64,000 bases of DNA from an uncultured Poribacteria bacterium (GTDB lineage: Bacteria > Poribacteria > WGA-4E > WGA-3G), in the NCBI GenBank assembly GCA_951828515.1, contig OX639992.1, positions 1,826,008-1,890,007 of the forward strand, written 5' to 3'. The translations under genes were made by a program, and so were the position numbers. The first letter of the stretch is position 1. Each line of letters starts with the position of its first letter. Under the pieces are notes generated by a model. It was not told where the DNA came from. It saw only the letters and a program-made list of their open reading frames with translations, and did no database searches. Below are positions 15,269 through 53,694 of the stretch, piece after piece.

Positions 15269-15414
15269 GGAGTTACGCAAAGCGCAATAATGCACGTCGC
15301 ATGAATCAACGGTATTCAGGTTCTCCATATGGCATGAGTCGGGGTGAGTACACCGCAGAATTGCGCTACTACGAACCAAAGCCCGCACAAAAACAGGTAA
15401 ACTATGTAAGTCCT
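15269..15414. repeat. MITE-family member with degenerate left TIR (AGGAGTTACGCAA) and intact right half shared with 29660/53575 copies
   Basis: The right half GAATTGCGCTACTACGAACCAAAGCCCGCAC...TATGTAAGTCCT matches the 29660 element. Confidence 0.5.
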
Positions 15415-15857
15415 ACCTAAGTTGCTACTTAACGTGAGATTGACATAAGCGTATCGTTGGAGCCCTGCCTCATTCTCGCAGGCAGCGGTGGATTGTCGGG
15501 TTTCGCTGTGTTTATTTTTCTGAATGTGTCATGAAAAAGGAGACGTTTGTGGGTAATTTGAAGGATTCTGGGTGTGTCATCGCTCTACCCGACCTACGGG
15601 TCTCTTTCAATTTTTATTATTAAACTCACGTTACTTACAAGATTTTCGCCGTGAAGTCCGCGTTTTTGTATCGTCTCCTGTGAACTTTCGGACGCACAAG
15701 AAACACGGACTAACAGTCTATGCTACAAAGGGGCTACTTGCGCTATTTGGGAAAACTTAATAACACAAAGGGGTGATGAGGCAGGCTTTCAAGTGCGTTT
15801 GCCTACCGAAATTGAAGGATGGAGATTGGAAAGTATGGAATAGGAATGGGAAATTTA

Positions 15858-18731
15858 TTAATTATCGCGCTGAAAACGGAATATCCCATTATGTTCTGTA
15901 CCGACGTAAAGTGTATTACGATCAACAGCAAGGGAGGTAACTGTGTATGGTATTTCTGGAGCAATTTGTTTCCAAGTGTTCGTTCGGCTATCTACTTGAT
16001 AAACCCCGCTGGCACATACACTGTAAAGGGTTGAGCCATCCGTCGCGATCTGATCCATAAGGAGTGGACACCCGTCAGTATCGGTGAGTGCATGCCAGGT
16101 TTCACCCTCGCGTGAACGCATCACTCCTGCGTCCGTTGAGATGTAGAGGGTTGAACCTACAAAGAGAATGTCTTTGTAGTAAGCAAACGGAAAGGCGAGG
16201 CTTTGGGTAATGTTCTTCCAAGTATTTCCACCATCCAGAGACCGGAAGAGGTCCCCCTCTCGTTTACCGGCATAGATGGTATCGTCCGAAGCGGCAAGAG
16301 CGAAACCTGTCTTAAGAGGTGAGATTTCTCCACCATCTTCCAAACCGGTGTGGTGCCACTCCGTCTCGCCGGGTCGCCACCTGAAAAGTTTCCGTCGGTG
16401 TTCCATAAAAACGGCTTCCCCGACGAGGGTAAAACTCCCGTTTGTTCTGTCTTCTGTCAGGAATAAGTTCTCGTCCCATAATTGTTCCGCTTCACGATCC
16501 CTGACGTTTGTTTCTCTGGCTTTTTGGAGCCTCTTCTGCAATTCAGTGTAGAGATCGTCTTCCTCGAAATCCGGCATACCTGGAACTGGTATCAGGGCAT
16601 CACTGCTAACGGGAAGGTAAAAAAGTTGCGTCCGATTACCGGGAACACTGCTGAGATGGAGAGTTGTATTGCTTGTCTGTATCTTTGGATAGACCAGAAG
16701 TTTACCTTCACTCTCCACGTTAAGGGTCTCCCAAGATTCACCACTGTTTTTTGATTTAATAATCTCTCCACCGGTGACTGCATAGAGAGCGTTTTCGACG
16801 GAACTTAGATTTTGAACATTGAAATTCGCGATCCCTGTTACAAAGGGATGCCATGTGTCCCCTCCATCCGTCGAGCGCGTTATTCCGCCGTAATAGGTTC
16901 TGTAAAAATTGTTTTCGTCCAACGCGATAGTAGGAGAAGCTCCAAATGCATGTCGGTCATTTCCAAGATACATCCACGTCTCACCGGCATCATAGGAGCA
17001 TAATATTCCACCAAAACTTATTAACAGAATCTTTTTCCCGATTGGGACGACTCTGACTGCGACTCCCATCTCAGGGGTATGCGGCGTAATATCGGTCCAT
17101 GAATCGCCGAGGTCGGTCGAATAGAAGACTTGGGCTTCAGGACCATGCCGTCGATTTATGCTCGTCCCGACGTAGAGCCTCTCCTCGGCAACTGCCAAGG
17201 ATTTAATACCGTGATCAGTCGGCACCGGCAATTTTTTCCAATTACCGGACAATCGGAAAAGCCCCCGACTCGTTCCGACAAAAAGCGTGTTATCAATGGC
17301 AAGCGCGTCCCGAATATGGAACTCGAAATCACCATCTTCCCGGACAATATCGGATCGCAAGACATGTCCTATGAATTCCCACTGCTTCCCAGCATCTTCG
17401 GAACGAAACACTTCGGTTCTGAGGACGAGGTACATCGTCATATCAGCATTCCCAGACTTGTGTTGCTGAGTGCCATCGGTAATCACCAATGCGACAGGAC
17501 GTCCCTCGGGGCGTGAGCCGAGAACACTCCAGGTTTTACCCCTATCCGTTGAGGCTAAAAGTTCATCGGATGTCAGGAGATAGAGGGTATCCCGGTATTC
17601 TGTCATGACCTTGCTGAATTCTCGCTTCGGACCGCTGGCACTGACAAGTGTCCACGCGTCTGTCTGTGGTGTGAATCGGTAGAAGCCGGGTTTCGCAACA
17701 GCATAGAGGGATTGGTCAGCGGCGAGAAAGAGTCCGGGATATGAAACCTCCCCTGTTCCGTTCGCTTGAATCCATTGCGGTTTCGCGGCGCGAGCGTCTG
17801 CCTCCTTGGGAGGCAAGGTAGCAAGCAAGTTGGGTCCCGGTTGTTGTCCGGCGCCTGTATTTTTGCCGAGCGTATCGGTGTTTCCGAATTGGTTTCTGAC
17901 ATCAGGCTTTAGTTTCAACGGAAGCACAACGGGTGCCTCAACGAATTCAATTGTCATCTCCGATGTTGCGTCTAAACTGTAAGGTTGCTGGAAACGATAC
18001 AGCGCACGTGTACCCACACCAATCATTAGAAGAATGAGAAACGTTGATGCGAAGGAAAACCCCCAGGGCACCCAAGGTTTACTTGCAGAAGGGGCAGTCG
18101 GCTGGAGACGAGCGATTTCTCGCATGACGTTCGCAGTCAGGGTCGACGGTGCTTGGAAAATACCGGAGACATCGTGGAGGAGGTGTTCTTGCGTTTTCAA
18201 TCGCTTGCGAGCCCGGTGGAGCCGACTTTTGATGGTGTTCGGGGATACACCCAAAAATTCACTAATCTTTTCACACGGCATCTCTGCGAGATAGTGCATC
18301 GTTACAACCGTGCGTTCGCTCTCTGGCAGTTTTTGGAGAAGACGCTTGACAAGGTCGCGCTGGTGCTCAACGTCTGCAGCTTCAGCACCTGTTGCCTCAT
18401 ACGCTGCATAGGAGAGTTCCGCCAGTTGGACCCCGGGCATCGCATCCAGAGATGTCGTTGGCTCCTGTTTCTTCCGCATCCACGCGATACACTGACGCGC
18501 CGCAATTACATAAAGCCACCCGAGAAAATGATACGGGGGTTTCAGGAGCGACAACTTTTTGTAAGCTTTCAGGAAAATATCTTGTGTGAGCTCCTGGGCT
18601 GTGTGAAAGTCGCCGATCTTCCGCCACACAAAGGTGTGGATCGGTTTCTGGTATCTGTTGACAAGCACGGTAAAAGCGTTGTCGTCTCCCTCTAAAACCC
18701 GCTGAATTAAGTCAAAATCATTGGTCTCCAT
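15858..18731 (-). CDS. ECF sigma factor fused to transmembrane anti-sigma-like segment and large BNR/Asp-box repeat (beta-propeller) extracytoplasmic domain
   Basis: N-terminal sigma-70 region 2 (DLIQRVLEGDDNAF...) and region 4 (ESERTVVTMHYLAEMPCEKISEFLGVSPNTIKSRLHRARKRL). One TM helix (WGFSFASTFLILLMIGVG). At least 8 Asp-box motifs S/TxDxGxTW (STDRGKTWS, SEDAGKQWE, STDLGDSWT, SYDAGETWM, STDGGDTWH, SKNSGESWE, SLDGGNTWK, SREGETWH). Confidence 0.75.
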   Translation of the reverse strand: METNDFDLIQRVLEGDDNAFTVLVNRYQKPIHTFVWRKIGDFHTAQELTQDIFLKAYKKLSLLKPPYHFLGWLYVIAARQCIAWMRKKQEPTTSLDAMPGVQLAELSYAAYEATGAEAADVEHQRDLVKRLLQKLPESERTVVTMHYLAEMPCEKISEFLGVSPNTIKSRLHRARKRLKTQEHLLHDVSGIFQAPSTLTANVMREIARLQPTAPSASKPWVPWGFSFASTFLILLMIGVGTRALYRFQQPYSLDATSEMTIEFVEAPVVLPLKLKPDVRNQFGNTDTLGKNTGAGQQPGPNLLATLPPKEADARAAKPQWIQANGTGEVSYPGLFLAADQSLYAVAKPGFYRFTPQTDAWTLVSASGPKREFSKVMTEYRDTLYLLTSDELLASTDRGKTWSVLGSRPEGRPVALVITDGTQQHKSGNADMTMYLVLRTEVFRSEDAGKQWEFIGHVLRSDIVREDGDFEFHIRDALAIDNTLFVGTSRGLFRLSGNWKKLPVPTDHGIKSLAVAEERLYVGTSINRRHGPEAQVFYSTDLGDSWTDITPHTPEMGVAVRVVPIGKKILLISFGGILCSYDAGETWMYLGNDRHAFGASPTIALDENNFYRTYYGGITRSTDGGDTWHPFVTGIANFNVQNLSSVENALYAVTGGEIIKSKNSGESWETLNVESEGKLLVYPKIQTSNTTLHLSSVPGNRTQLFYLPVSSDALIPVPGMPDFEEDDLYTELQKRLQKARETNVRDREAEQLWDENLFLTEDRTNGSFTLVGEAVFMEHRRKLFRWRPGETEWHHTGLEDGGEISPLKTGFALAASDDTIYAGKREGDLFRSLDGGNTWKNITQSLAFPFAYYKDILFVGSTLYISTDAGVMRSREGETWHALTDTDGCPLLMDQIATDGSTLYSVCASGVYQVDSRTNTWKQIAPEIPYTVTSLAVDRNTLYVGTEHNGIFRFQRDN

Positions 18732-18906
18732 CTATATCTTCTCCAAAAAATGAGCGTAAGGGCTTTATTATATAGTAACGCGTATAGAGGATCGAAAGGT
18801 TGCATAAAATGCAAGTTTCACGATAAATATTTTCGCCTTTTATAGCCTAAGTTGCTACGTACAAGATTTTATGGTAGATTTTAGAATTACTTTGACACTC
18901 TAAAGA

Positions 18907-18945: not shown

Positions 18946-19240
18946 AGAAGGGTCGTTGTTTTTTAGGATGTCTATGTATTTTTAGGATTTACCATAGTTA
19001 TGAAGGAAGAAGAGGCACAGACTAACAGTCTATGCTACGAATATCAAAATTTCTACACAGATATCGCCCCGCTGAGGCTTTAGCGTATTAGCGTTTTCTC
19101 ATTCGTAATTTACCAGAGATGTTCATTTTTTGCAAGGAATTTGGCTAAGAGCGGGTGTGTAAAATTTTGCCAGAAGATTGGGTTGGAAGGGTGGAAACTT
19201 GGAAGCGGAAAGTGTTGGTTGTCAGCGTCAGGTCAATTGT

Positions 19241-19267
19241 GTAAGTCCTAAGATCTTCAGGACTTAC
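19241..19267. repeat. perfect hairpin GTAAGTCCT-aagatcttc-AGGACTTAC built from the MITE TIR sequence
   Basis: 9-bp stem with a 9-nt loop; the arms are the TIR motif in inverted order. Confidence 0.5.
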
Positions 19268-19313
19268 GCAAAATGAAGATTAAGAATTTAATCGGGTAAT
19301 GCGGGTATTAATT

Positions 19314-19358
19314 GTCTGAATCAGGATTTTCAGGATTCAAGGATTTTCAGGATTATAG
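19314..19358 (+). repeat. CAGGATT-array repeat copy 1 (TGTCTGAATCAGGATTTTCAGGATTCAAGGATTTTCAGGATTA)
   Basis: A ~44-bp element holding four CAGGATT half-sites; also present at 48515 and 49552. Confidence 0.6.
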
Positions 19359-19420
19359 AACCTCTTTGATTGAGAACTTTCCTTTATAGAATTATCCAAA
19401 TATTTTATTAGGCTTCATAT

Positions 19421-19569
19421 TGCGTAAAGCAGCAATATATTTCACCCAAAAATGCCTCGCAGTGAGAGTATTTCAGTTATTTAACCCCCTAAAGAATCAA
19501 CGGTATGAATGCCTTATGGCATTCCCCGCCCCTTATCAGGGGGACTTCAAGAGGAAGTGTGTAAGTCCT
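19421..19569. repeat. MITE-family member (right TIR TGTGTAAGTCCT intact; internal module shared with 33112 copy)
   Basis: TTAACCCCCTAAAG...CCCCTTATCAGGGGGACTTCAAGAGGAAGTGTGTAAGTCCT parallels the 33112..33231 element. It overlaps the last codons of the nucleotidyltransferase gene. Confidence 0.45.
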
Positions 19570-19573
19570 AATC

Positions 19574-20251
19574 CTAAAAAAGTTGCTGGGCTGCCTGGAG
19601 GCGTTCGGGAGAGCCGATATCTATCCAATCGGGGTCGGTTTTAAGAACATGAAGGTTTTCTAATTTCGGAAGGACATCGTAGGAGAGAGAAAACACGTCG
19701 CTATCGGGAAACGATCGAGCAATTTTGCTGTTGAAGAGGTAGACACCGGCATTGATATACCCACTTTGGTATGTGGTAGGTTTTTCCAGGAATGCCGTAA
19801 TCTGCCCTGTATCCGAAGAGATGATTTCACCATAAGGACGGGTGTCATCCACCCAAACAGATAGCAGTAAACCTGCCATGTCCTCTCGAAATGTAGATAC
19901 CATTTCGTTGAGCGAGAAATCTCGCCACAGGACATCCCCGTTCAACACAAAGAACGGGGAACTCTGTATGTACCGCATTGCGTTTTTGATAGCACCCCCG
20001 GTGTCAAGTTTTTTATCTTCTTTACAATAGCGAATGGAAATGCCATTGTAAGACTCTCCGATGGTGTATTGGAGCACATCATGGAGGTGCCCAGTCGCGA
20101 GGATGAGTTCTTGGACTCCAACTTCCTTCAGGAATTCACACTGCCATTGTAGAATAGAACGGTTTTTGATTTTTAGGAGAAGTTTGGGGGTATGTTTGGC
20201 GGTGGCCCCCAGGCGAGTCGCATGTCCACCGCATAAAATGATTGCTTGCAT
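19574..20251 (-). CDS. sugar-phosphate nucleotidyltransferase (NDP-sugar pyrophosphorylase family)
   Basis: MQAIILCGGHATRLG N-terminal nucleotide-binding motif; 225 aa. Confidence 0.75.
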   Translation of the reverse strand: MQAIILCGGHATRLGATAKHTPKLLLKIKNRSILQWQCEFLKEVGVQELILATGHLHDVLQYTIGESYNGISIRYCKEDKKLDTGGAIKNAMRYIQSSPFFVLNGDVLWRDFSLNEMVSTFREDMAGLLLSVWVDDTRPYGEIISSDTGQITAFLEKPTTYQSGYINAGVYLFNSKIARSFPDSDVFSLSYDVLPKLENLHVLKTDPDWIDIGSPERLQAAQQLF

Positions 20252-22294: not shown

Positions 22295-22296
22295 TG

Positions 22297-28926: not shown

Positions 28927-29273
28927 ATTTTTTGTCTCTATATACAACAAACTGAATCAACACATTATTTTATTTCAACTCGAAGAATGCCAATTCTTGA
29001 AATAATGCTCTGTTACAACGACAGATATCTCTAACGAATTTTTTACGTATCACTCAGCATTCTCTATGTTGCAATTCCCGTGCCAATTGGAAGAACCCAC
29101 GCCGTTCGTGAATTTTAGGAAAATGGGACTACGCAAATTTTTCGCAGTCGGCAAATTTTGCATACCGAATCTCTGCAGATATTGCAGAGTTCCAAAAGGC
29201 AGTGGCACCGGCGCGCGATATATCGGGGACGAACACTATGGTAAACTTTAGAATTAACTGTACACTCTGCACC

Positions 29274-29294
29274 GGCGAGGTTAGAAACCTCGCC
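29274..29294. repeat. REP-like hairpin GGCGAGGTTAGAAACCTCGCC
   Basis: Same family. Confidence 0.6.
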
Positions 29295-29360
29295 TACCCG
29301 GGGAGGGGAGAATGTCTGCTTATTTTTTTGGTTTACCATAATAGCGACAAACTCCTTAAC

Positions 29361-29645
29361 CTACTCCCAATCCGCGTGTCCGCTATCAACCATCCTCCGA
29401 TTGACATACAAGTTATCCGAGTATCGCCAGACATGCGCGACTATGCGCCCATAAATATCGGTAGCTACCGACTTGATTGTGACGCGCTTCAGCTCTATGA
29501 GAAACTTTAGATAGGCAGTGGATATTTGTCCTTCGGGGGTGCTGTTTTCAGGGGCATTTATATTTGCCAAGCGAATGCGTTGAGTTGACGTGTTAAAGGT
29601 ATCACCATCAGTTACGGATGTGACGTAGGTTGAATATTCATGCAT
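29361..29645 (-). CDS. thermonuclease (staphylococcal nuclease-like) family protein
   Basis: VTDGDTF...IRLANINAPE...DIYGRIVAHV matches the SNase core (v.DGDT..irL.giDaPE....YGR.la.v). 94 aa with a GGAGG RBS. Confidence 0.6.
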   Translation of the reverse strand: MHEYSTYVTSVTDGDTFNTSTQRIRLANINAPENSTPEGQISTAYLKFLIELKRVTIKSVATDIYGRIVAHVWRYSDNLYVNRRMVDSGHADWE

Positions 29646-29659
29646 CTCTCTACCTCCTC

Positions 29660-29779
29660 AGGACTTACGCAAAATTGGCTTTCATGCCAAAATTGAAGGG
29701 ATATTCCCGAAGAAAGCGCAATGAATTGCGCTACTACGAACCAAAGACCGCATGAAAACGGGTCAACTGCGTAAGTCCT
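29660..29779. mobile_element. MITE-like element (~120 bp) with 12-bp terminal inverted repeats AGGACTTACGCA / TGCGTAAGTCCT
   Basis: It is bounded by perfect TIRs and is intergenic. A near-identical copy (~95% identity) lies at 53575..53694. Confidence 0.7.
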
Positions 29780-29947
29780 ACCTCCTTTTTGAAGGAGTAA
29801 CTTATAGGCGTATGTGGACGGAAACGGAATAGCCGCTATCCCTCACAAATTAGGGATTTATACTACAGTAACGCGGATAGGGTACAGGAAGGTTGCAGAA
29901 AGTGCAATTCTTTGGAAATGTTGTGTGGTTACAATAAATTTGTAATG

Positions 29948-29974
29948 TGGCGAGGTTAGGAAACCTCGCCAGCG
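29948..29974. repeat. REP-like hairpin GGCGAGGTTAGGAAACCTCGCCAGCGG
   Basis: Same family; identical to the 20270 copy. Confidence 0.65.
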
Positions 29975-30252
29975 GCGGTGGAGGTATCCGCTTCTCTTGA
30001 GATTGCCTCGCAGTAAGAGTTATTTGTAGGTTTTACCATAGATGAAGTCAACAATTTCTATTTTAGTGTTAGAGAAATTCGGTATACCGACGTGTGTAGA
30101 TTAAAATGTTTGTTCTATACGAAGCGGAGAATTTTTGAGGGAACTTAAGGAGCAGGAAGGTGGACGCGAAAGAAGGCGCGGTGTCGCGCCTTCCAACATA
30201 TCCATTTTTTTCGACTTGACAGAAGCGAGTAGAAATGCTACGTTACTGAATA

Positions 30253-30699
30253 TTAATTATTCTCGGCACCTTCGTCAATCCAGTCAATGAAAAGTTGGAC
30301 TTGGTCTCCATCCAACGGTGGGCCGCCAGGCGGCATGCCGCCGCCATCAATGCGTTTGACGACAAGGCTTCCTTTGCCATCGCCAGCGACAAAGGCAGGA
30401 CCGTTCGCGCCACCCTTTTTGAAGGTATCGTATTGGCTGAGGTTAAGCCCTGCGACACCGGGTGCGGCGTGGCATCCCGGAACGGCGCATCGTTCAGCGA
30501 GGATAGGCTGGACATCGTCCCCAAAAGAGACCCCTTCCACAACAGGTTCTTCGACAGGAGGAGGCTCAGGTGCTGGTGTCTGAGCAGGAGGAGGCGTTGT
30601 AGCGGGCTGGAGAACATCAGCCATACCGGTGGTATCCTCAGTGGTGTCACCTTCATCCCCGCAACTGGCAACGAAGATTGCAATGAGAAAGAGACTCAT
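30253..30699 (-). CDS. lipoprotein with planctomycete-type cytochrome c (PSCyt1-like) domain
   Basis: Signal peptide with an ASCG lipobox, then a Pro-rich linker. ERCAVPGCHAAPGVAGLNLSQYDTFKKGGANGPAFVAGDGKGSLVVKRIDGGGMPPGG...LFIDWIDEGA resembles the PSCyt1 pattern (C..CH ... GG.sG.a.vpG....S.L...i...MPp ... l..WI..GA). Start may instead be upstream at 30768. Confidence 0.5.
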   Translation of the reverse strand: MSLFLIAIFVASCGDEGDTTEDTTGMADVLQPATTPPPAQTPAPEPPPVEEPVVEGVSFGDDVQPILAERCAVPGCHAAPGVAGLNLSQYDTFKKGGANGPAFVAGDGKGSLVVKRIDGGGMPPGGPPLDGDQVQLFIDWIDEGAENN

Positions 30700-30897
30700 G
30701 GCGAAAATAGGAATAGAAACGGAATGAAGGTATCGTTTACGTGTATGTATCAAAGACGAAGCAATCACGACAGGATTCTCCTTTTTTCAGAAATGTATTT
30801 TTTGGCGTAGTTTGCAAGCCAAAACTTGCTGTTAAATGTGTAGGAATCTCGTTGTTTTGTATGTATATAGAATACCACGATGCAAAGGAGATGTCAA

Positions 30898-31842
30898 ATG
30901 AAAATTCTGATTAACACCGATACGACGGCAGAACAACAACAGCAGATCAAATCGGTTTCTGATGACCTTTCGCTTGTGCACCCACAGAATTCAGAAGAGG
31001 CGCTGCGCGAAATCGTAGATACTGATATTGTGTTGGGTGGATTCAACCGTTCGCTTTTTGAAAATGCGAAACAACTGAAATGGGTACAAGTACTTTCGGC
31101 TGGCGTTGATGGCTTGCTGTTTCCGGAATTTGTTAAAAGCGATGTTATCCTAACGAGCGCGAAAGGGTTTGTTGGTCCACATCTGGCAGATCAGACATGG
31201 GCTTTACTTCTTGGTCTCCTCCGCGGCGTCGGACGTTCGGTTCGCGAGCGGACGTGGGACAATCGAATGTCGATCCGTCTGGCGACGTGGGAACTCAGCG
31301 AACAAACGCTGGGGATTATCGGACTCGGTGGAACGGGGATTGACGTTGCGCGTCGGGCACAAGGGTTCGATATGCGCGTTATCGCTGTGGATCCAGAGGC
31401 AGTTGAAGCACCATCGTTTGTCCATGCGGTTTGGAAGATGGATCGGTTCCATGATCTTCTTGCGGCGTCAGACATCGTTGCTATCTGTGCCCCGCTGACC
31501 CCGGAGACGCACGGTATGTTCGACGATGCGGCGTTTGAACAGATGAAATCGCATGCGCTGCTTATCAACGTCACACGCGGCAAGATTGTCGACGGACCGG
31601 CACTGCTCCGTGCACTCACTTCAGAAAGTATCGGCGGTGCGGGGTTAGATGTCACGCCTGAAGAGCCGTTGCCTACTGACAGTCCGTTATGGGATCTACC
31701 GAACGTGATTGTTACACCACACGTTGCGGGTGGCTCACCGATCCGCTTGGACCGGAGTGTTGGGCTTTTCTGCGATAATTTAGAACGGCTCCTCGTTGGG
31801 AAACCGCTCCTGAGCGTGATTGACAAAGAGAAAGGGTACTAA
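30898..31842 (+). CDS. D-isomer-specific 2-hydroxyacid dehydrogenase family (glyoxylate/hydroxypyruvate reductase or PGDH-like)
   Basis: GIIGLGGTGIDVARRAQGFDMRVIAVD NAD-binding GxGxxG-17-D, with catalytic R/E/H region (VTRGKIVD...VTPHVAG). An AAGGAG RBS lies 7 nt upstream of the ATG at 30898. Confidence 0.8.
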   Translation: MKILINTDTTAEQQQQIKSVSDDLSLVHPQNSEEALREIVDTDIVLGGFNRSLFENAKQLKWVQVLSAGVDGLLFPEFVKSDVILTSAKGFVGPHLADQTWALLLGLLRGVGRSVRERTWDNRMSIRLATWELSEQTLGIIGLGGTGIDVARRAQGFDMRVIAVDPEAVEAPSFVHAVWKMDRFHDLLAASDIVAICAPLTPETHGMFDDAAFEQMKSHALLINVTRGKIVDGPALLRALTSESIGGAGLDVTPEEPLPTDSPLWDLPNVIVTPHVAGGSPIRLDRSVGLFCDNLERLLVGKPLLSVIDKEKGY

Positions 31843-32043: not shown

Positions 32044-33054
32044 TTAGTCCATATCAGCGATTTTAACGAGTTGCTTCCCGGTATTGCCGCCCTTTAGCAT
32101 GCTAATGAACGCTGCGGGCGCGCTTTCGATCCCACCTTCTTCAATTGTCTCATGATATTTCAACCTGCCCTGTCGCAACCATTCTGACATCTCAACGAGT
32201 GCCTCGGTATGCTGATCGGCGAACTCAGAGACGAGGAAGCCTTCAATCCTCGCGCGCTTAGTGATCATGTGCCAGAGGAAACGCGGTCCTGTCTCCGGTT
32301 TCTCTAAGTTATACTGCGAAATTTGCCCACAAATGACGACGCGCCCCTTGATTCTTAAATTAGTGAAAACGGCATCTGTGATAGCACCACCGACGTTGTC
32401 AAAATAGACATCAATACCATCAGGAAGAAGTCTCTGGAGTTCTTCGTGATAATCGCTAACCTCTTTATAATTAAAAGCGTCATCAAATCCGAGTTCATCA
32501 ACGATGTAAGCGACTTTTTCATCGGTTCCTGCAGAACCGACAACCCGACACCCCTTGATTTTCGCGATCTGTCCGACGACGGAACCGACTGCCCCAGCGG
32601 CACCAGAGACAAATACTGTCTCCCGCTCTTGGAGTTTCCCAATCTCAAGCAAGCCGAAATAGGCTGTTAGACCGGGCATACCGAGAATCCCGGCACCGGT
32701 TGAGATAGGAGCGATTGTCGGATCAATCTTCCTTAAGCCATCACCGGCAGCAACGCCATATTCTTGCCATCCGATACCCGCGTTGACGATATCACCTACT
32801 TGAAAATCCGGATGCTTTGACGCGACAACTTGTGCGATAACACTACCTATCATAATCTCGTCAATTTCCACGTTAGCGGCGTAAGATTTCGCTGCATTAA
32901 TCCGTCCTCGCATATATGGATCCACTGAGAGGTAGAGCGTCTTTACCAACACCTCTCCATCTTCAGGCGTTGGAATCGGCACTTCAACCAAGTTAAAATC
33001 CGACTCCTTTGGGTACCCTGCGGGTCGGGAAGCGAGGGTAATTTGACGATTCAT
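32044..33054 (-). CDS. NADP-dependent oxidoreductase, MDR superfamily (YncB/CurA/PTGR-like alkenal/enone reductase)
   Basis: MNRQITLASRPAGYPKESDFNLVEVPIP...LYLSVDPYMRGRI N-terminus is typical of this family. GAAGAVGSVVGQIAK nucleotide motif. AAGGAG RBS. Confidence 0.8.
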   Translation of the reverse strand: MNRQITLASRPAGYPKESDFNLVEVPIPTPEDGEVLVKTLYLSVDPYMRGRINAAKSYAANVEIDEIMIGSVIAQVVASKHPDFQVGDIVNAGIGWQEYGVAAGDGLRKIDPTIAPISTGAGILGMPGLTAYFGLLEIGKLQERETVFVSGAAGAVGSVVGQIAKIKGCRVVGSAGTDEKVAYIVDELGFDDAFNYKEVSDYHEELQRLLPDGIDVYFDNVGGAITDAVFTNLRIKGRVVICGQISQYNLEKPETGPRFLWHMITKRARIEGFLVSEFADQHTEALVEMSEWLRQGRLKYHETIEEGGIESAPAAFISMLKGGNTGKQLVKIADMD

Positions 33055-37240: not shown

Positions 37241-37375
37241 AGGGCTTACGCATAAAGCAGATATTAGAGGATGCAAGAGTAAATATAGTGGATTCTGTAA
37301 TTAATTTTACACCAAACTCGGTGCGGTTAGAAACCGCACCTACCGGCGGTGTGCAGATATTAGAGGATGAAAGAA
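37241..37375. repeat. degenerate MITE-like copy (AGGGCTTACGCATAAAGCAG ... CGGTGCGGTTAGAAACCGCACCTACCGGCGG)
   Basis: It shares its internal module with 37515..37604. The TIRs are mutated. Confidence 0.4.
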
Positions 37376-37514
37376 CAAACGGATAGGGATTTTCCTATGC
37401 CTCCAATCTTTCACGGTTCCAATCCTGCCAGCAGACGAAGGAATCTCGCGTAAGTGTATTAGAATCGGAAACATGTTTGGATGTTTTATACTTTTATATC
37501 CATTTTTTACGATC

Positions 37515-37604
37515 AGGACTTACGCAAAATCACTAAATTTCATCTATTCGGATGCATTCGGTACGGTTGGGAAACCGCACCTACCGGGGAAGTGCGTAAG
37601 TCCT
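37515..37604. mobile_element. MITE-like element (~90 bp), same TIR family, internal module CGGTACGGTTGGGAAACCGCACCTACCGGGG
   Basis: It has perfect TIRs. Its internal module also occurs in a degenerate copy at ~37241..37375. Confidence 0.65.
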
Positions 37605-37637
37605 AACTATTATCAACCTATAAACAAGGAAAACTAA

Positions 37638-40430
37638 ATGTCAATTTCAAATAGTAAACAGTATTTCTGGTACATTGCCGCCATTTTATTTAGCATTGCA
37701 TCAGTGATACCAACGGCTGTCAGTGCAGACACACTCTCAGTCGTTGTTCAAGATCAGAATGGAAATGCTATATCAGAAGCAAAAGTACAAATTGGAAACC
37801 AAGAACAAACAACTGACGAATCAGGAACTGCCACGTTTAGCGATGTCACAGACGCACAGTCAGTGACTGTAATAGCAATCGGATTTTCGAGTAAACGCAT
37901 TAATACCACTGCCGGACAAACTGAAGCAATAGTCAATCTTGCTCCGATTCAAACGATTGAATCCGTTGTAGTCGTCGGGACCCGGAGTATAGGTAGGCGA
38001 GCTTTACAAGCCTCCGTTCCAATAGAAGTCGTTAACAGGGAACAACTCAGCCTTACCGGTCAATCTGAGACAGGGCGTGTGCTTCAGATGTTAGTCCCCT
38101 CCTTCAATTTCTCAAGTTCAAGCATTAGCGATGGCACAGATGCCCTGCGTCCAGCAACACTGCGTGGCTTGGGACCTGACCAGACGCTTGTGCTTGTCAA
38201 TGGTAAGCGTCGTCACAAAAGTGCGTTGTTGCACGTTAACACGTCGGTAGGACGTGGGACCGCTGGAACGGACTTCAATGCGATTCCATCCGCGGCGATA
38301 GAGCGTATTGAGGTACTTCGGGATGGCGCGGCGGCACAGTACGGCTCCGATGCTATCGCTGGTGTTATCAACATCGTGCTAAAAGATGACGTTGACACAG
38401 GCGATGCCGACATCTATTGGGGACAAACATACGAAGGCGATGGCGACACATGGAACGGTAACGCCAACTACGGCATGAAAGTCGGCGAATCCGGTTTCCT
38501 CAATCTCACCGCTGAATGGCGCGATAGAAAACGGACGAACCAGGCAGGTCTTACGGGCGAACGGCAGTATGACTGGATAGATGTCGACCAAGGCAGACCT
38601 CCGGATAAAATGCTTGAAATTGAAAATGATGATGGAACTGTAACCGAAAAACCGGTATGGTTTGACCCGCGCGAATACACTTTTGAACGGCAGAACTTCC
38701 GCATTGGAGATGCCGACTCTTCACAAAAAATTGGATTTTATAATTTTGGACTTCCACTCGCCGCGGGTTTAGAACTCTATTCTTTTGGTGGGCACTCTTC
38801 ACGCCAAAACAACAGTGCCGGTTTTTACCGCCGAGCCAACCAAGCATCACGGACTGTCACCGAAATCTATCCCGACGGGTTCCTACCGGAAATCAATACC
38901 GACGTTGGGGACACATCCATTGCCTTAGGTATAGCATGGACGCATGAAGCGACCGACCTGAATGTCGATGCCAGTATCAATCACGGCTTGAATACATTCG
39001 ACTTTTTGATTTCTAACTCACTGAATGCCTCCTATGGTGCGAGCAGTCCGACCTCCGCGGATGCGGGTGGATTTGAGCTTTCGCAAACGGTGTTTAACTT
39101 AGATGTCACCTATCCACTGGACTACCAATCCTCACTGATGAACCTCGCAGGCGGTGTCGAGTTCCGTCGAGAAGGTTACGGCATCCACGCTGGCGAACCG
39201 CTTTCATGGATTAACGCTGGACTTGGGGCACCGGGTGCCACTGGCGGTATCCAAGTATTCCCCGGTTTCCGACCCGATAACGAATTGGACGAAAGTCGAA
39301 CCAATATTGCAGGTTATGCTGATTTTGAATCCTATCTCAGTGGACAACCCGGAGCAGGTCTTCTTGTCGGGGCAGCGGTGCGCGGTGAGCAGTATAGCGA
39401 CTTCGGTACCACCGTCACAGGAAAAGCGACGGCTCGCTATGACTTGACGAAACAGATTGCGGTTCGTGCGGCGGGCAGCACAGGTTTCCGGGCACCTTCA
39501 CTGCATCAACTCTACTTCAATAACATCAGTACGCAATTCTTGGTAGATGCGACGGATCTTGATGGTGACGGCGATACAACCGAAGTGTTACCACGCGAAC
39601 TCGGCACGTTCCGTAACGACAGCGATGCTGCACGTGCACTCGGGATACCTGAACTCAAAGAGGAAACCGCATTTAACGTCTCCGGTGGTTTCGTGTTGAA
39701 ACCGCTTGAGAAGATGTGGCTCACAGTAGACGGTTTTCTCATCCAAATTGATGATCGCATCGTTCTGAGTGGTAGTTTCAGTGCCGATAAAATTCCAAGC
39801 CTCATCGCGGCAGGGGCAAGCAGCGCACAGGTGTTCACAAACGTCGCACAGACACGCACCCAAGGCGTGGATGTCGCAGCGGGTTATCTCCACGCTTTCG
39901 ACGATGAATCGCTTCTTAATCTGAAGGTTGCGTTCACATGGGCAGATACCGAAGTTATCGGTGCCGTGGATGCGCCAGAAATCCTCATCGGGCTTGAGGA
40001 GACCCTCTTCCCTTCACAGGATCGCTCCATGATTGAGGAGTGGCAGCCGAACACCCGAATCAACTTCAGTGCAGATTACATCATCGGCGATCTCACCATC
40101 GGTGGTGCTTTGCGCTACTTCGGGAGTTACACCGTCCAAGAGGGAAGTGGTGCCGATCCGGCACGGCAGACTTACGGCGGGAAATGGCTTACCGATGTCC
40201 AGAGCAACTATCAACTCAATGAAGGGCTTTCATTGACTATCGGCGTGAACAACTTATTTGACCAACTGCCCGATCTCAATGAAATCGGTCAGTCGCGGGC
40301 TGGAACATTAGAGGATAGCACAGGACATGTCATTGTGGACTCGCCTGGCGTTTTCACGTATTCCAGAAGGTCGGCACCTTTCGGTTTCAATGGCGGACTT
40401 TACTACGCGAAACTATCCTATAGTTTCTAA
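37638..40430 (+). CDS. TonB-dependent outer-membrane receptor with N-terminal carboxypeptidase-regulatory-like domain
   Basis: Signal peptide, then a CarbopepD_reg-like stretch (VVVQDQNGNAISEAKVQIGNQEQTTDESGTATF). Plug region with TonB box. C-terminal barrel ends YYAKLSYSF (terminal Phe). Confidence 0.85.
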   Translation: MSISNSKQYFWYIAAILFSIASVIPTAVSADTLSVVVQDQNGNAISEAKVQIGNQEQTTDESGTATFSDVTDAQSVTVIAIGFSSKRINTTAGQTEAIVNLAPIQTIESVVVVGTRSIGRRALQASVPIEVVNREQLSLTGQSETGRVLQMLVPSFNFSSSSISDGTDALRPATLRGLGPDQTLVLVNGKRRHKSALLHVNTSVGRGTAGTDFNAIPSAAIERIEVLRDGAAAQYGSDAIAGVINIVLKDDVDTGDADIYWGQTYEGDGDTWNGNANYGMKVGESGFLNLTAEWRDRKRTNQAGLTGERQYDWIDVDQGRPPDKMLEIENDDGTVTEKPVWFDPREYTFERQNFRIGDADSSQKIGFYNFGLPLAAGLELYSFGGHSSRQNNSAGFYRRANQASRTVTEIYPDGFLPEINTDVGDTSIALGIAWTHEATDLNVDASINHGLNTFDFLISNSLNASYGASSPTSADAGGFELSQTVFNLDVTYPLDYQSSLMNLAGGVEFRREGYGIHAGEPLSWINAGLGAPGATGGIQVFPGFRPDNELDESRTNIAGYADFESYLSGQPGAGLLVGAAVRGEQYSDFGTTVTGKATARYDLTKQIAVRAAGSTGFRAPSLHQLYFNNISTQFLVDATDLDGDGDTTEVLPRELGTFRNDSDAARALGIPELKEETAFNVSGGFVLKPLEKMWLTVDGFLIQIDDRIVLSGSFSADKIPSLIAAGASSAQVFTNVAQTRTQGVDVAAGYLHAFDDESLLNLKVAFTWADTEVIGAVDAPEILIGLEETLFPSQDRSMIEEWQPNTRINFSADYIIGDLTIGGALRYFGSYTVQEGSGADPARQTYGGKWLTDVQSNYQLNEGLSLTIGVNNLFDQLPDLNEIGQSRAGTLEDSTGHVIVDSPGVFTYSRRSAPFGFNGGLYYAKLSYSF

Positions 40431-40569: not shown

Positions 40570-43368
40570 ATGTTAATTTTAAGCAATATACGTTACTTCT
40601 GGCACATCGCCATCATTTTATTCGGCATCACATTGATGATACCGATGGCAGCCAATGCCGATATACTTAAAGTAGTCGTTCAAGATCAAAATCGGAAGGC
40701 TGTTCCAGAAGCAAAAATTCAGGTTGGCAATCAAGAACAAACAACAGATGACTTTGGGACCGCCACTTTTAGCGATATAGCAGATGCAGAATCGCTAACT
40801 GTAACAGCAATTGGATTTCTGAAAAAACGAATTAATATCATTTCGGGGCAAACCGAGACCACAGTAATACTGGCTCCCATCCAAACGATTGAATCTGTTG
40901 TAGTCGTTGGAACTCGGAGTATGAGCAGACGAGCTCTGCAGGCTCCTGTCCCGATAGAAGTCGTTAACAGGGAACAACTCAACCTTACGGGTCAATCTGA
41001 AACGGGTCGTGTGCTTCAGATGTTAGTACCCTCCTTCAACTTCCCAAGTTCAACCATTAGTGATGGCACTGACGCGTTGAGACCCGCGACTTTGCGGGGT
41101 TTGGGACCTGATCAGGTGTTGGTACTGATCAATGGTAAACGTCGCCACAAAAGTGCGTTACTTCACGTAAACAGTTCGGTCGGTCGTGGCACTGCCGGCA
41201 CAGACTTCAACGCGATTCCTGCCGCGGCGATAGAACGTATTGAAGTACTCCGAGATGGTGCAGCGGCACAGTACGGCTCCGATGCCATCGCTGGTGTTAT
41301 CAACATTGTGCTGAAGAACGATGTCGATAAAGGCGATGCTAACATTTATTGGGGACAAACTTATGAAGGTGACGGAGATACGTGGAGTGGAAATGTGAGC
41401 TACGGAACGAAAGTAGGAGATTCCGGCTTTCTCAACTTAACAGCGGAATGGCGTGAACGTTATCGGGCAAATCGCGCTGGACTCACCGGGACGCGACAAT
41501 ACGATTGGGTAGAAGCGAATCAAGGCAGAGCACCTGATGCTATACTTGAGGTAAAGGATACAAATGGTAATGTGACAGGTGAAAAACGGGTCTGGTTTGC
41601 CCCACGCGAATATCATTTCAATCGGAAAAATCTCCGGGTCGGGGATTCTGACGCCTCACAAAAGGTTGGGGTTTACAATTTTGGCTTGCCGCTGACGGAA
41701 GGATTAGAGTTATATTCATTCGGTGGTTATTCCACGCGCCAAAACAACAGCTCAGGTTTTTATCGCAATGCCAAAGATGTTAGCCGTAACGTGAAAGCGA
41801 TCTATCCAGATGGTTTTCTCCCCGAAATTAACACAATGATTGAAGATGTATCCATTGCTTTGGGAATGGCTTGGAACCACACCTCAACAGATTTGAATGT
41901 TGATGTCAGTATCAATCACGGTCTGAATACGTTTGACTTTTTCGTTTCTAACTCTCTGAATGCATCCTATGGGGCTGCGAGTCCAACTGTCGCTGATTCC
42001 GGTGGCTTTCGACTCGATCAAACCGCTTTTAATGTAGATGCCACCTATCCGCTTATGTATCAGTCTTCACTGGTGAACCTCGCAGGGGGTGTCGAACTCC
42101 GTAGGGAAGGCTACGGTATTCGAGCGGGTGAACCTGTTTCTTGGCTCAACGCAGGTCTCGGTGCAGAAGGTGCCGCTGGCGGTATTCAGGTATTTCCCGG
42201 CTTCCGACCGGACAATGAAGTCGACGAAAGCCGAACCAATATTGCAGGCTATGCGGACTTCGAATCCTACTTAAGTGGCCAACCCGGAACAGGTCTTCTC
42301 GTCGGTGCTGCAGTGCGTGGGGAACAGTATAGCGATTTCGGTGCAACTGTCACAGGCAAAGCGACAACCCGCTACGAGCTGACAGAACAGGTTGCGGTCC
42401 GCGCTGCAGGTAGCACAGGTTTCCGAGCCCCTCTACTCCAACAACTCTATTTTAACAACATTAGCACACAATTCAAGGCGGACAATAACGATGCTGACGG
42501 CGATGGGGACACAACAGAACTACTGCCTTTCGAGATAGGGACATTTCGGAATGATAGTGCCACGGCGCGCACGCTCAACATTCCAGAGCTCAAAGAGGAA
42601 ACCTCCGTCAATGTTTCAGGCGGCATTGTGGTCAAACCCATTCAAAATCTATGGCTGACGCTTGATGCCTTTCAGATTCATATTGATGATCGGATTGTGC
42701 TGAGTGGAAGTTTCAAGGCTGATGCTGTCCCTGTCTTAGCACAAGCGGGTGTTAACCAAGCACAAGTCTTTACAAATGTCGGACAAACACGCACCCGTGG
42801 TATCGACATAGCTGCAGGTTACCTACATGCTTTCGACAACGAATCCATCCTGAATTTCAAGTTCGCGGCAACGTGGACGGACACTGAAGTTATTGGCGAT
42901 GTGGAAGTTCCCGGTCCTATTCTGATTGGCTTTGAGGAAATCCTTTTTCCGGAACGAGAACGCTCCATCATTGAGGAATGGCAACCGAACACGCGCATAA
43001 ATTTCACAGCAGATTATATTATTGGTCCCCTCAAGCTTGGATCTGCTTTACGCTACTTCGGAAGTTACACCGTTCAAGAAGGAAGCGGAGAGAGTGCGCA
43101 GCGACAAACCTATAGTGGAAAATGGCTCACTGATATCCAAGGGATATATCAACTCAGCAACTCTTTAGCACTGACGTTAGGGATAAACAATTTTCTTAGT
43201 CAACTACCTGACCTGAATGAGGTGGGACAAGCGCGTGGTGGCACCCTCATAGATAGTACTGGAACAGTTATTGCGGATTCACCAGGCGTTTTCACGTATG
43301 ACCGTAGGGCTGTCCCTTTCGGTTTTAACGGTGGATTTTACTACGCGAAGGTATCCTACAGTTTTTAA
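40570..43368 (+). CDS. TonB-dependent outer-membrane receptor (tandem paralog of 37638..40430)
   Basis: About 70% identical along its length to the upstream receptor, with the same domain order. It ends YYAKVSYSF. Confidence 0.85.
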   Translation: MLILSNIRYFWHIAIILFGITLMIPMAANADILKVVVQDQNRKAVPEAKIQVGNQEQTTDDFGTATFSDIADAESLTVTAIGFLKKRINIISGQTETTVILAPIQTIESVVVVGTRSMSRRALQAPVPIEVVNREQLNLTGQSETGRVLQMLVPSFNFPSSTISDGTDALRPATLRGLGPDQVLVLINGKRRHKSALLHVNSSVGRGTAGTDFNAIPAAAIERIEVLRDGAAAQYGSDAIAGVINIVLKNDVDKGDANIYWGQTYEGDGDTWSGNVSYGTKVGDSGFLNLTAEWRERYRANRAGLTGTRQYDWVEANQGRAPDAILEVKDTNGNVTGEKRVWFAPREYHFNRKNLRVGDSDASQKVGVYNFGLPLTEGLELYSFGGYSTRQNNSSGFYRNAKDVSRNVKAIYPDGFLPEINTMIEDVSIALGMAWNHTSTDLNVDVSINHGLNTFDFFVSNSLNASYGAASPTVADSGGFRLDQTAFNVDATYPLMYQSSLVNLAGGVELRREGYGIRAGEPVSWLNAGLGAEGAAGGIQVFPGFRPDNEVDESRTNIAGYADFESYLSGQPGTGLLVGAAVRGEQYSDFGATVTGKATTRYELTEQVAVRAAGSTGFRAPLLQQLYFNNISTQFKADNNDADGDGDTTELLPFEIGTFRNDSATARTLNIPELKEETSVNVSGGIVVKPIQNLWLTLDAFQIHIDDRIVLSGSFKADAVPVLAQAGVNQAQVFTNVGQTRTRGIDIAAGYLHAFDNESILNFKFAATWTDTEVIGDVEVPGPILIGFEEILFPERERSIIEEWQPNTRINFTADYIIGPLKLGSALRYFGSYTVQEGSGESAQRQTYSGKWLTDIQGIYQLSNSLALTLGINNFLSQLPDLNEVGQARGGTLIDSTGTVIADSPGVFTYDRRAVPFGFNGGFYYAKVSYSF

Positions 43369-48475: not shown

Positions 48476-48514
48476 AAGAATGGAAGGCTGGGAAGAGTGG
48501 AAGGGGAAGAGATC

Positions 48515-48557
48515 GTCTGAATCAGGATTTTCAGGATTCAAGGATGTTCAGGATTAG
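48515..48557 (+). promoter_or_regulatory. CAGGATT-array repeat copy 2, intergenic upstream of sugar-phosphate isomerase gene
   Basis: Same 44-bp element, in the same orientation as the flanking genes. Confidence 0.4.
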
Positions 48558-49483: not shown

Positions 49484-49551
49484 GTGTTCTGTCTACCATA
49501 GGCGCGCTGCATGAAGATTCAGAATTTAATTCGATTATGTGGTGCGTCCAT

Positions 49552-49595
49552 TGTCTGAATCAGGATTTGCAGGATTCAAGGATTTACAGGATTAT
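49552..49595 (+). promoter_or_regulatory. CAGGATT-array repeat copy 3, intergenic upstream of RraA-like gene
   Basis: Same element, in the same orientation. Confidence 0.4.
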
Positions 49596-50481: not shown

Positions 50482-50565
50482 AAGCTCCGCACGCCGCAAT
50501 TCAGATTGACGACAACGCAGACTCCTGCTAAAATTAAGAGAAACCCACAGACACGGAGGGGACGC

Positions 50566-51393
50566 ATGAAACCTCTTAACGACTTCGCTCTCAAACAACG
50601 AAAATATCTGCCGACCTTCACAAAAGCCACCGGAAAACCTACCGTTTACATACCAGGCTACCCGTATGAGGACGAGCACCCTATACCCGCAACCGGATTC
50701 CACGGAGAACAGATCAACATCTTGTATGAACAACTCTCCAGTTATTTCGCAACGCACACCCATATCTATATCGGCGTTGACAACTTCATCTATTACCGTG
50801 AAGGCGATACCACGAAGAGCGTCGCACCCGATATTTATGTCGTCTTAGGCGCAGCAAAATTTCCACTCCGCAGGAGTTTCTACACTTGGGCAGAAGGTGC
50901 GGTGCCAACGGTGCTTTTTGAGTTTTTGTCGGATTCGACAGCCGATGAGGATCGAGAAGAAAAGGTACAGATATATCTACGGGATATAGGGGCACAAGAG
51001 TATTTCATCCATCAACCCGAGATGGAGAAACCTGCAGAGTTTCGCGGGTGGCGGCGGGACCCCTCAGGCGCGATTGTTGAGATGCCCGCGGATGCACAGG
51101 GAGATTTATTTAGCGAGTCCTTAAATTTGTCGTTCCGGTGGACAGATCAACATCATAGCCATGTCCGGTTGTTACGTCCTTATCTGCCGGATGGCACTCC
51201 GATCACGACTGCTATAGAAGAGCGGAACCTTCGCGCAGCAGCGAAACTGCGTGCGGAAGAAGCAGAAGTCCGTGCGGAAGAAGCAGAAGTCCGTGCGGAA
51301 GAAGCAGAAGTCCGTGCGGCAGCAGAAGCGCGCCGACGGCAGGCATTAGAACTTGAGTTGGAACACCTTCGCCGCCGACTCACAGACCGATAA
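50566..51393 (+). CDS. Uma2 family endonuclease (DUF820) with C-terminal heptad tandem repeat (RAEEAEV x3)
   Basis: PDIYVVLG...PTVLFEFLSDST is the Uma2 core. A GGAGG RBS lies 7 nt upstream of the ATG at 50566. The C-terminus is coiled-coil-like and encoded by a 21-bp x3 tandem repeat. Confidence 0.7.
   Translation: MKPLNDFALKQRKYLPTFTKATGKPTVYIPGYPYEDEHPIPATGFHGEQINILYEQLSSYFATHTHIYIGVDNFIYYREGDTTKSVAPDIYVVLGAAKFPLRRSFYTWAEGAVPTVLFEFLSDSTADEDREEKVQIYLRDIGAQEYFIHQPEMEKPAEFRGWRRDPSGAIVEMPADAQGDLFSESLNLSFRWTDQHHSHVRLLRPYLPDGTPITTAIEERNLRAAAKLRAEEAEVRAEEAEVRAEEAEVRAAAEARRRQALELELEHLRRRLTDR
51250..51330 (+). repeat. in-frame 21-bp tandem repeat (CGTGCGGAAGAAGCAGAAGTC x3 + partial) inside Uma2 gene
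   Basis: Encodes RAEEAEV x3. Confidence 0.7.
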
Positions 51394-52958: not shown

Positions 52959-53366
52959 TTAGAAGAGTTTTGCTTTTTTATTTCCCCATTTTGGATCAAC
53001 TGAAGGTGCACAAAGACAGTCGCGATTGTGTTCCAAAGCCGCTGCCTCACGGTAATGACCACCATTTTCCAATTCGCGTATTTTCTGATTATAGTGCTCA
53101 AGCACGCGTTGGTATACTTCCTCTGCAGTCAAACCATCAGCAAACGCCCGATCTATTTCAGAATCGCAGTCAAAAAAAGCGTCGGAAATACGCATCAAAA
53201 CGATGAAGTCCTCATTGTATCCAAAGTAGGCAAGGCACCCATGGGTCCCAAAGTCAGGTCCGAGTTTAGCAGCAGTTTGACAAGCAAAAAAATGAACAAC
53301 CTTGCTATCTGATTCCTCAGATTGATAACTCCCTATATCAAAAATAGAGTTGCAATGTTCTCCCAT
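52959..53366 (-). CDS. hypothetical protein
   Basis: 135 aa ORF with no RBS and no recognisable motif. Coding status uncertain. Confidence 0.25.
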   Translation of the reverse strand: MGEHCNSIFDIGSYQSEESDSKVVHFFACQTAAKLGPDFGTHGCLAYFGYNEDFIVLMRISDAFFDCDSEIDRAFADGLTAEEVYQRVLEHYNQKIRELENGGHYREAAALEHNRDCLCAPSVDPKWGNKKAKLF

Positions 53367-53574
53367 ATAGAAGGGACAAGCAGTGAAATGGAACTTGTGT
53401 TGGTTCTCCTTCTACCACTTCTCGTAAAGAAATCCATTGACCATCGGAAGTTATAGCCACTGGACGACTCCAATGGTCTTCGTGAGGCATTGGTGCGTTA
53501 TTCGCCATGAGTGTCTCCTTAAGGAATCAGAACCCAAACTATTTTTTTTAAACTGGTTGATATTTCTAAGTATC

Positions 53575-53694
53575 AGGACTTACGCAAAATTGGCTTTCAT
53601 GCCAAAATTGAGGGGATATTCCCGAAGAGAGCGCAATGAATTGCGCTACTACGAACCAAAGACCGCACGAAAACGGGTCAACTGCGTAAGTCCT
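53575..53694. mobile_element. MITE-like element, second near-identical copy (TIR AGGACTTACGCA)
   Basis: It shares ~95% identity over 120 bp with 29660..29779 and has the same TIRs. Confidence 0.7.

Follow-up and report, generated by a model that had tools for sequence, protein, structure and literature searches.

The insertion sequence (IS) ISPlag1 of Planktothrix agardhii belongs to the IS701 group, measures 1,306 bp and encodes a transposase of 337 aa; its terminal inverted repeat was printed as CAGGACTTACGCAAGCACGCTATATATAG (CAGGACTTACGCAAGC...); deletion remnants of 197 bp have also been described (Christiansen et al. 2008, PMC2464740). In this work we analysed a stretch of 64,000 nucleotides from an uncultured Poribacteria bacterium (hereafter the window), in which a set of small dispersed elements shares the terminal motif AGGACTTACGCA. 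We propose, with high confidence, that these elements are MITEs (miniature inverted-repeat transposable elements) that are moved in trans by an ISPlag1-family DDE transposase (IS701-like, NF049921, about 337 aa). In the searchable full-text literature the motif is found as a transposon end in the ISPlag1 paper only, the other match being unrelated.

The termini of the window elements are identical to the 13-bp termini of ISPlag1 (CAGGACTTACGCA / TGCGTAAGTCCTG), with a 5-bp duplication directly outside them, and Planktothrix also harbors small non-coding derivatives with the same ends. The window elements differ from ISPlag1 in that they are non-coding, belong to Poribacteria and share no sequence with it beyond about 17 nt; moreover, the outer pyrimidine (Y) and purine (R) combine independently in MITEs of the window type, whereas they are complementary in the ISs. 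In the IS701 family almost all members generate a target duplication of exactly 4 bp, the ends follow the consensus ---YACT-Y--YR, and the DDE transposase has an incomplete YREK motif (De Palmenaer et al. 2008, PMC2266710). The transposases of the ISPlag1 clade share the DDE type and the incomplete YREK motif, and the ends match the consensus at ACT (positions 5-7), Y (12) and R (13); however, the duplication is 5 bp and not 4 bp long, and the ISPlag1 clade therefore departs from the IS701 type. As for the architecture, a likeness exists with Nezha, a cyanobacterial MITE of 130-170 bp tied to ISNpu3 (Zhou et al. 2008; review PMC3184786), and with the MITEs of Anabaena and Microcystis, which consists in inverted ends shared with an IS, flanking direct repeats, filled and empty sites and stable hairpins.

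Results

The conserved ends and the elements that they bound

The motif AGGACTTACGCA, searched on both strands with at most one mismatch, has 13 matches in the window versus 0.16 expected, a number that was attained in 0 of 100 shuffled windows; at three mismatches the count (44 observed, 42 expected) is at chance level, and for this reason only the copies listed below are considered real. Every match is intergenic, as judged from the sequence and from the list of open reading frames (ORFs) of the window. The set of copies with common ends put forward in the original prediction, made by a model from the letters and ORFs of the same DNA, is therefore real, the 64 kb containing seven elements plus a solo end. 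That prediction had assigned to the family a terminal inverted repeat of 12 bp; the 12-mer itself was borne out, but the true end is 13 bp long, with one extra outer pyrimidine on the left and one extra outer purine on the right, so that the element termini read Y-AGGACTTACGCA ... TGCGTAAGTCCT-R. Pairs of these ends bound four small elements that are intact (A, B, D and E) and three older or composite ones (C, F and G), in addition to the solo right end:

MITE A, 29659-29780, 122 nt with the outer bases; exact 12-mers at 29660-29671 and 29768-29779
MITE B, 53574-53695, 122 nt; 12-mers starting at 53575 and 53683; same family as A
MITE D, 33111-33232, 122 nt; 12-mers starting at 33112 and 33220
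MITE E, 37514-37605, 92 nt; 12-mers starting at 37515 and 37593
Composite F, 19258-19570, 313 nt; 12-mers at 19259 (exact) and 19558 (one mismatch)
Degenerate C, 15267-15415, 149 nt; 12-mers at 15268 and 15403, with one and two mismatches
Old composite G, 37240-37459; left end AGGGCTTACGCA at 37241, right end degenerate (8/12), to about 37458
Solo right end, 19238-19250, TGTGTAAGTCCT-A; from an A-like element and followed after 7 nt by the left end of F

All the elements are non-coding and 92-313 nt long, the intact copies measuring 92 and 122 nt; their terminal inverted repeats are exact 12-mers at both ends in A, B, D and E and carry one to four mismatches in C, F and G.

Target-site duplications and empty sites

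Flanking duplications are present at five of the seven elements. D is bordered by a perfect 5-bp duplication, TGTCA, at 33106-33110 and 33233-33237 (TGTCA / T-AGG...CCT-G / TGTCA); an apparent outward extension of its inverted repeat is resolved as this duplication plus one outer base. A is flanked by CCTCC at 29653-29657 and 29781-29785 (CCTCC / TC-AGG...CCT-A / CCTCC) and B by AAGTA at 53568-53572 and 53696-53700 (AAGTA / TC-AGG...CCT-A / AAGTA), in both cases with one additional T at the left end (29658 and 53573, respectively). At E (ACGAT, 37509-37513, versus ACTAT, 37606-37610) and at F (ATCTT, 19253-19257, versus ATCCT, 19571-19575) four of the five positions match.

The length of the duplication was established on a larger set, obtained by scanning one genome per species with a 24-base gapped DNA pattern, AGGACTTACGCA-N(66-96)-TGCGTAAGTCCT, which returned at least 120 loci. 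Among the matches listed (120 loci), the 5 bp found one base beyond each 12-mer form a perfect duplication in 89 of the 122 small elements, whereas a control with shuffled pairing gave a mean of 1.2 and a maximum of 6; a duplication matching at four or more of five positions occurs in 100 of these 122 elements, and the duplicated sequence is 78% A+T. One base separates the duplication from the 12-mer, Y at the left end and R at the right end, and an offset of 1 nt at one end, like that of A and B, is found in about 12% of the set. These statistics, together with the empty sites described below, exclude a duplication of 6 bp or 7 bp in favour of 5 bp plus one outer base.

Exact look-ups of proteins encoded in the window gave no hit in public assemblies. 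The window was then compared with syntenic 21-kb loci from four public Poribacteria assemblies (L256-L259). The sister strain L256 exhibits 98% protein identity, and 92-98% DNA identity over about 29.8-48.6 kb of the window; A, D and E are precisely absent from it, and the 5-mer that flanks them twice in the window is present there once. These clean empty sites show that the insertion of the three elements was recent. The empty site of D in L256 reads ...GATCTTAC-TGACA-GTTAACC..., with one TGACA, and the filled site of the window, on the same strand, ...GATCTTAC-TGACA-[C AGG...CCT A]-TGACA-GTTAACC.... At the site of A, (A/G)GAGG occurs only once in the sister strain and serves as the Shine-Dalgarno sequence, 7 nt before the ATG, of a SNase-like gene, 29361..29645(-); the window has two copies of it flanking A. 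The site of E is uninterrupted (GATAATAGT|GAAAAATG) in L256 as well as in L258, which is more distant, and E is therefore an insertion in the lineage of the window. G is found in L256, which preserves its end better, but not in L258, and is therefore older; the site of C in L258 is too diverged to be scored. Overall, the syntenic stretch contains four elements in the window, one in L256 and none in L257-L259, which indicates a recent strain-specific expansion in the lineage of the window.

A and B lie at different loci, each with its own duplication, and differ at 3 of 122 positions; their identity, previously put at about 95%, is thus 97.5%. The recent mobility that had been suggested on the basis of this pair is supported by its identity at separate loci as well as by the empty sites of A, D and E.

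The same ends on autonomous elements

A full ISPlag1 copy on plasmid 2 of P. agardhii NIES-204 reads ACTGT / CAGGACTTACGCA ... TGCGTAAGTCCTG / ACTGT, that is, 13-bp ends and a 5-bp duplication (ACTGT) around a gene for a transposase of 337 aa. With NCBIfam NF049921 ('IS701 family transposase') this protein reaches a score of 408 bits; it also shows similarity to Pfam DDE_5 and DDE_Tnp_1 and is labelled 'IS701-like element ISPlag1 family transposase' in RefSeq; it has more than 7,000 homologue clusters, the best 120 of which are 64-99% identical. About 80 related ISs from metagenomes and plasmids have the same structure, with 337-aa DDE transposases 43-100% identical to that of ISPlag1. The 80 metagenome ISs (L260-L339) were found through peptide patterns alone; their transposases are 56-77% identical to that of ISPlag1, and the ends are exact in 74 of the 75 detectable on the left and in 74 of 78 on the right. 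Two further IS lineages (1,394 bp and 1,531 bp) carry the same ends and 5-bp duplications, and the same 13-bp ends are found on plasmid-borne ISs of Acinetobacter baumannii (transposase 47% identical, duplication AAGGT), Spirosoma (43%, TATAT) and Paraburkholderia (57%, ACCTC). In a Piscirickettsia IS (35% identical) the ends have diverged to CACGAGTTTCGCA and the duplication is still 5 bp. Hence the 13-bp end and the 5-bp duplication are properties of the whole clade of ISPlag1-like elements.

The outermost bases are complementary in 70 of 73 ISs (T..A in 43, C..G in 27, C..A in 3), whereas in the MITEs of the cross-genome set (L121-L240) they combine freely, even within one MITE family (TA 34, CA 33, TG 28, CG 24); this free pairing may reflect tolerated transitions or the chemistry of end processing. 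It can also be observed that 51 of 73 metagenome ISs use the TAA of the right 12-mer (TGCGTAAGTCCT) as the stop codon of the transposase; in these compact ISs (about 1.05-1.12 kb) the reading frame extends into the inverted repeat. Derivatives with internal deletions occur on Planktothrix plasmids: one (L242, 27192-27708) keeps residues 1-124 and 289-337 of the transposase, another (L241) residues 289-337 only.

Distribution of the ends across lineages

Among the matches listed, the loci returned by the pattern scan belong to Cyanobacteria (73), Candidatus Poribacteria (19), Proteobacteria, mostly Undibacterium/Burkholderiales (14), Chloroflexota (5), Moduliflexus (2), Methanosarcina (2), Desulfobacteraceae (1), Pyrinomonadaceae (1) and Daviesbacteria (1), with two unclassified. 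Interiors with no relationship to one another are therefore enclosed by the same ends in no fewer than eight further phyla as well as in Methanosarcina; the lack of conservation beyond the contig, named beforehand as the outcome that would speak against the family, is contradicted by motif pairs at 120 or more loci in many lineages. The occurrence of these elements in Poribacteria, their recent activity there and the breadth of the MITE-bearing lineages are unreported in the searchable literature.

End pairs lying 0.6-3 kb apart were considered as candidate full ISs, and both of those inspected (L145, L158) enclose ordinary host genes. A scan of viral contigs with the 14-mer CAGGACTTACGCAA gave mostly single matches that are apparently due to chance. 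Complete small elements with these ends are present in four IMG/VR contigs classed as viral (L009, L014, L057, L340), which may be prophage-borne or misclassified host DNA; if the viral assignment were true, this would be a conceivable route for the spread of the element between hosts.

Interiors and neighbourhood of the window elements

The interiors are modular, as originally proposed, and the modules are shared between C and A/B, between F and D and between E and G. Indeed, the 61 nt at the 3' end of C are 85-89% identical to A and B; the 3' part of F is D-like with a small insert, and its 5' part holds a 46-nt TCAGGATT repeat; the interiors of E and G carry a hairpin repeat, in the version GGTACGGTTGGGAAACCGCACCTACC in E, which is also free-standing in the window. 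The interior families match Poribacteria loci only: that of D is also found in six other Poribacteria genomes, and that of E at the Poribacteria loci L145, L140 and L188. Some MITEs of Nostoc (L165/L198/L178) differ from their relatives (L202/L229/L224) in that the interior hairpin has an insert of 22-26 nt in its loop (e.g. ...GGTAAT[ACCCTGCGGGAAGCC...CTAC]ATGAATTACC...); C and F of the window show this pattern too, with the insert GAATCAACGGTAT...ATGGCAT in common, which suggests that even smaller mobile inserts nest within MITEs.

Two of the features previously listed require a different interpretation. The sequence at 19421 (TGCGTAAAGCAG) has four mismatches to the end motif and is internal to composite F, so that it is not a separate copy. 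The free-standing hairpin at 19238-19270, which had been viewed as an excision or insertion footprint, consists of two abutting element ends: a right end, a 7-nt spacer and the left end of F, folding at -11.4 kcal/mol. An excision footprint is ruled out because it would not retain both complete 12-mers, in the order right end and then left end, and the structure is the product of two adjacent insertions, the upstream one being truncated; no left end that might partner the solo right end was found upstream at two or fewer mismatches.

The genes neighbouring the elements have ordinary metabolic and envelope functions. D lies 56 nt upstream of the start codon of an MDR reductase gene, 32044..33054(-), whose product is 80-98% identical to Candidatus Poribacteria proteins, and 49 nt downstream of a PhyH stop codon, and the right end of F adjoins the stop codon of the gene 19574..20251(-).

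Other features of the window and of the syntenic loci

The genome is unusually rich in small intergenic repeats. A second family comprises GC-rich hairpin repeats of about 35 nt (GGCGAGGTTAGGAAACCTCGCCAGCGG and variants) with a repetitive extragenic palindromic (REP)-like look, at 9310, 11589, 20270, 29273, 29949, 34228/34288/34341, 37319 and 58095; they occur free-standing in intergenic regions, in a 60-nt tandem array (34204-34380) and inside E and G, and L258 has several copies where the window has G. A 46-nt repeat of TCAGGAT(T) heptamers (ATTGTCTGAATCAGGATTTTCAGGATTCAAGGATTTTCAGGATTAT) is present at 19311-19356 (inside F), 48512-48557, 49550-49595 and L256 14-58, in copies 93-96% identical. 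Short dispersed repeats lie at 4905, 4969, 5004, 9384 and 52797 (GTCGGGAATCGGAGTTCCCTCCTACA) and at 22, 2109, 2275 and 34031 (TTTTAATTTTCCTTGCGGTTCGGTCAGGC). Tandem repeats of 21 nt (51237-51341, inside the ORF 50506-51393) and of 39 nt (54857-55011, between an ORF that ends at 54818 and one that starts at 55009) were also found. The window contains no Rfam family and no tRNA.

Concerning the syntenic loci, the window has two tandem paralogues of a TonB-dependent receptor (37638-40430 and 40570-43368, about 73% DNA identity), of which L256 has an orthologue of the second only and L258 of the first only; the segment 37514-40568, which is extra relative to L256, begins exactly at MITE E. L258 and L259 carry at 7887-9011, between the ADH and PhyH genes, a gene for an IS605-type TnpB (OrfB_IS605 / Cas12f-like) that is absent from the window and from L256. 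The window lacks a 1.27-kb segment of L256 (12157-13424) that codes for an RRXRR-domain protein (PF14239) and would fall between 30897 and 30898 of the window.

Discussion

The elements described here are small and non-coding, have inverted ends shared with an IS family, duplicate a target of fixed length and occur in dispersed copies with empty orthologous sites. The idea of a MITE family, already present in the original prediction, is hence supported by the duplications, by the empty sites and by ends identical to those of an autonomous family. Of the features that characterise the ISPlag1 clade, the window has the termini and the 5-bp duplication and lacks the transposase of about 337 aa (NF049921): as expected from the first reading of this DNA, a tblastn search with the ISPlag1-family transposase (E up to 10) revealed no homologue in the window. 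On this basis we consider the window elements to be non-autonomous derivatives, or users of the ends, rather than ISPlag1-clade ISs.

Other explanations can be envisaged for these copies. They might be full-length ISs that decayed in situ, rather than units that moved at their present small size. The internal-deletion derivatives on Planktothrix plasmids and the published 197-bp remnants are in agreement with such a process, as are the age and degeneration of G and C; nonetheless, no interior resembles a transposase gene, and the difference between filled and empty site is exactly the small element plus 5 bp. Besides, independent decay does not fit two copies as similar as A and B, each with its own duplication, nor the recurrence of the interior families of D and E at unrelated loci of other Poribacteria genomes. 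In-situ decay, which we regard as very unlikely for the set as a whole, is thus contradicted for A, B, D and E, whereas it may apply to C, to G and to the solo end at 19238. As for the assembly, the window possibly derives from a metagenome and A and B are nearly identical, so that one might think of collapsed or chimeric repeats, or of gene conversion between the two copies. The elements, though, are short (90-313 nt), and each has unique flanks collinear with three independent Poribacteria assemblies; the concern about collapsed repeats raised with the original prediction is not in agreement with these distinct flanks and with the orthologous empty sites. Gene conversion, in turn, does not create a target duplication such as the one that A has of its own, and the probability of an artefact or of gene conversion appears practically negligible.

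A different possibility is that the copies are structured elements selected by the host, such as REP-like palindromes, small RNAs or terminators, and not transposons. All of them are intergenic, the 12-mer is conserved across phyla, and the intact copies fold far better than shuffled sequences (z = -4.7 to -6.4; A as single-stranded DNA, -26.5 kcal/mol, z = -6.4), whereas C does not (z = -0.9). This folding, however, is a trivial consequence of the inverted ends. REPs of the REP/RAYT systems are palindromes of 20-40 nt with a GTAG or CGTC head, generate no target-site duplication and are associated with a RAYT gene; to our knowledge, they have neither terminal inverted repeats around a variable interior nor target-site duplications. 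The window elements share with them the small size, the intergenic location, the hairpins and the abundance, and differ in their length of 92-313 nt, in the variable interior between inverted ends and in the 5-bp duplication, and are thus not REPs. The suggestion that they carry promoters or terminators for adjacent genes found no signal above chance in the region scanned (29000-38000), where no promoter-like site lies inside an element and the terminator-like hairpins inside elements are limited to a weak one, in A, the total count being within chance. The absence of Rfam matches, the lack of relationship between the interiors of different lineages, the precise empty sites and duplications typical of transposition, and the identity of the ends with those of transposase-encoding ISs all argue against host-selected structures, an explanation that we deem highly improbable.

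Some observations weigh against mobilisation by an ISPlag1-family transposase. The tblastn search gave no homologue either in about 235 kb of other Poribacteria DNA (19 genome loci and L256-L259), and a negative over about 0.3 Mb of sampled Poribacteria DNA says little about a whole genome. The window elements share with any sampled IS their terminal 16-24 nt only, and an origin by internal deletion of an IS, as documented in Planktothrix, would in their case be hypothetical. Moreover, C and G have no recognisable target-site duplication, A and B reach theirs only with the 1-nt offset at one end, and the chemistry (cut-and-paste or copy) can for this family be inferred only from its relationship to IS4. 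In the same context, a regular-expression search with the published transposase motif CAIRWKIEEFHREIK gave no match in the loci examined, and a parent IS was not found in Poribacteria by scans that had no taxonomic filter.

Mobilisation in trans by an ISPlag1-family transposase remains, in our opinion, the explanation that best accommodates these data. According to this model, the transposase would bind both termini and excise or copy the element, which would then be joined to target DNA cut with a 5-bp stagger, the repair of the gaps yielding the duplication. The source of the transposase would be outside the window, and the parent would be a full-length IS with ends CAGGACTTACGCAAAAT.... The best terminal match is that between the left 24 nt of F and the IS of L303 (23/24), and the left subterminal GCAAAAT of the window elements resembles that of a clade of short ISs (about 1.1 kb) with T...A outer bases; the interiors have no similarity to any sampled IS or transposase gene. 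They are made up of host-specific hairpin repeats and shared modules, and may have arisen by nested insertion, by recombination between members or by the capture of host repeats between two ends.

It could further be speculated, although we consider it unlikely as a whole, that the 13-bp end is a near-universal 'address label' read by one transposase clade (at least 43% identical; Cyanobacteria, Proteobacteria, Bacteroidota, archaea-linked) and that lineage-specific MITEs were repeatedly born when host hairpin repeats came to lie between two ends. The strain-specific bursts of Poribacteria would then possibly depend on a transposase transiently present on a plasmid or phage, and the free Y/R combination would derive from a step of end processing (e.g. 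imprecise hairpin opening) and not from mutation.

Conclusions

The kind of element is known (an ISPlag1-clade MITE), and the host is newly recorded for it. The comparison provides a clean definition of the ISPlag1 clade, whose 13-bp ends do not vary, whose duplication is 5 bp long and whose stop codon often lies inside the right end, and the 24-base pattern can be used in annotation to detect MITE families with these ends, which are suited to a simple mobilisation experiment. As regards the biology of the host, the elements explain conspicuous intergenic repeats of this genome and show ongoing transposition in an uncultivated sponge symbiont. Since three of the four elements in the 23-kb syntenic stretch are absent from a strain 92-98% identical there, the insertions can serve as strain markers; they may also alter gene expression. 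One of them (A) went precisely into a ribosome-binding site, and another separates two co-directional genes.

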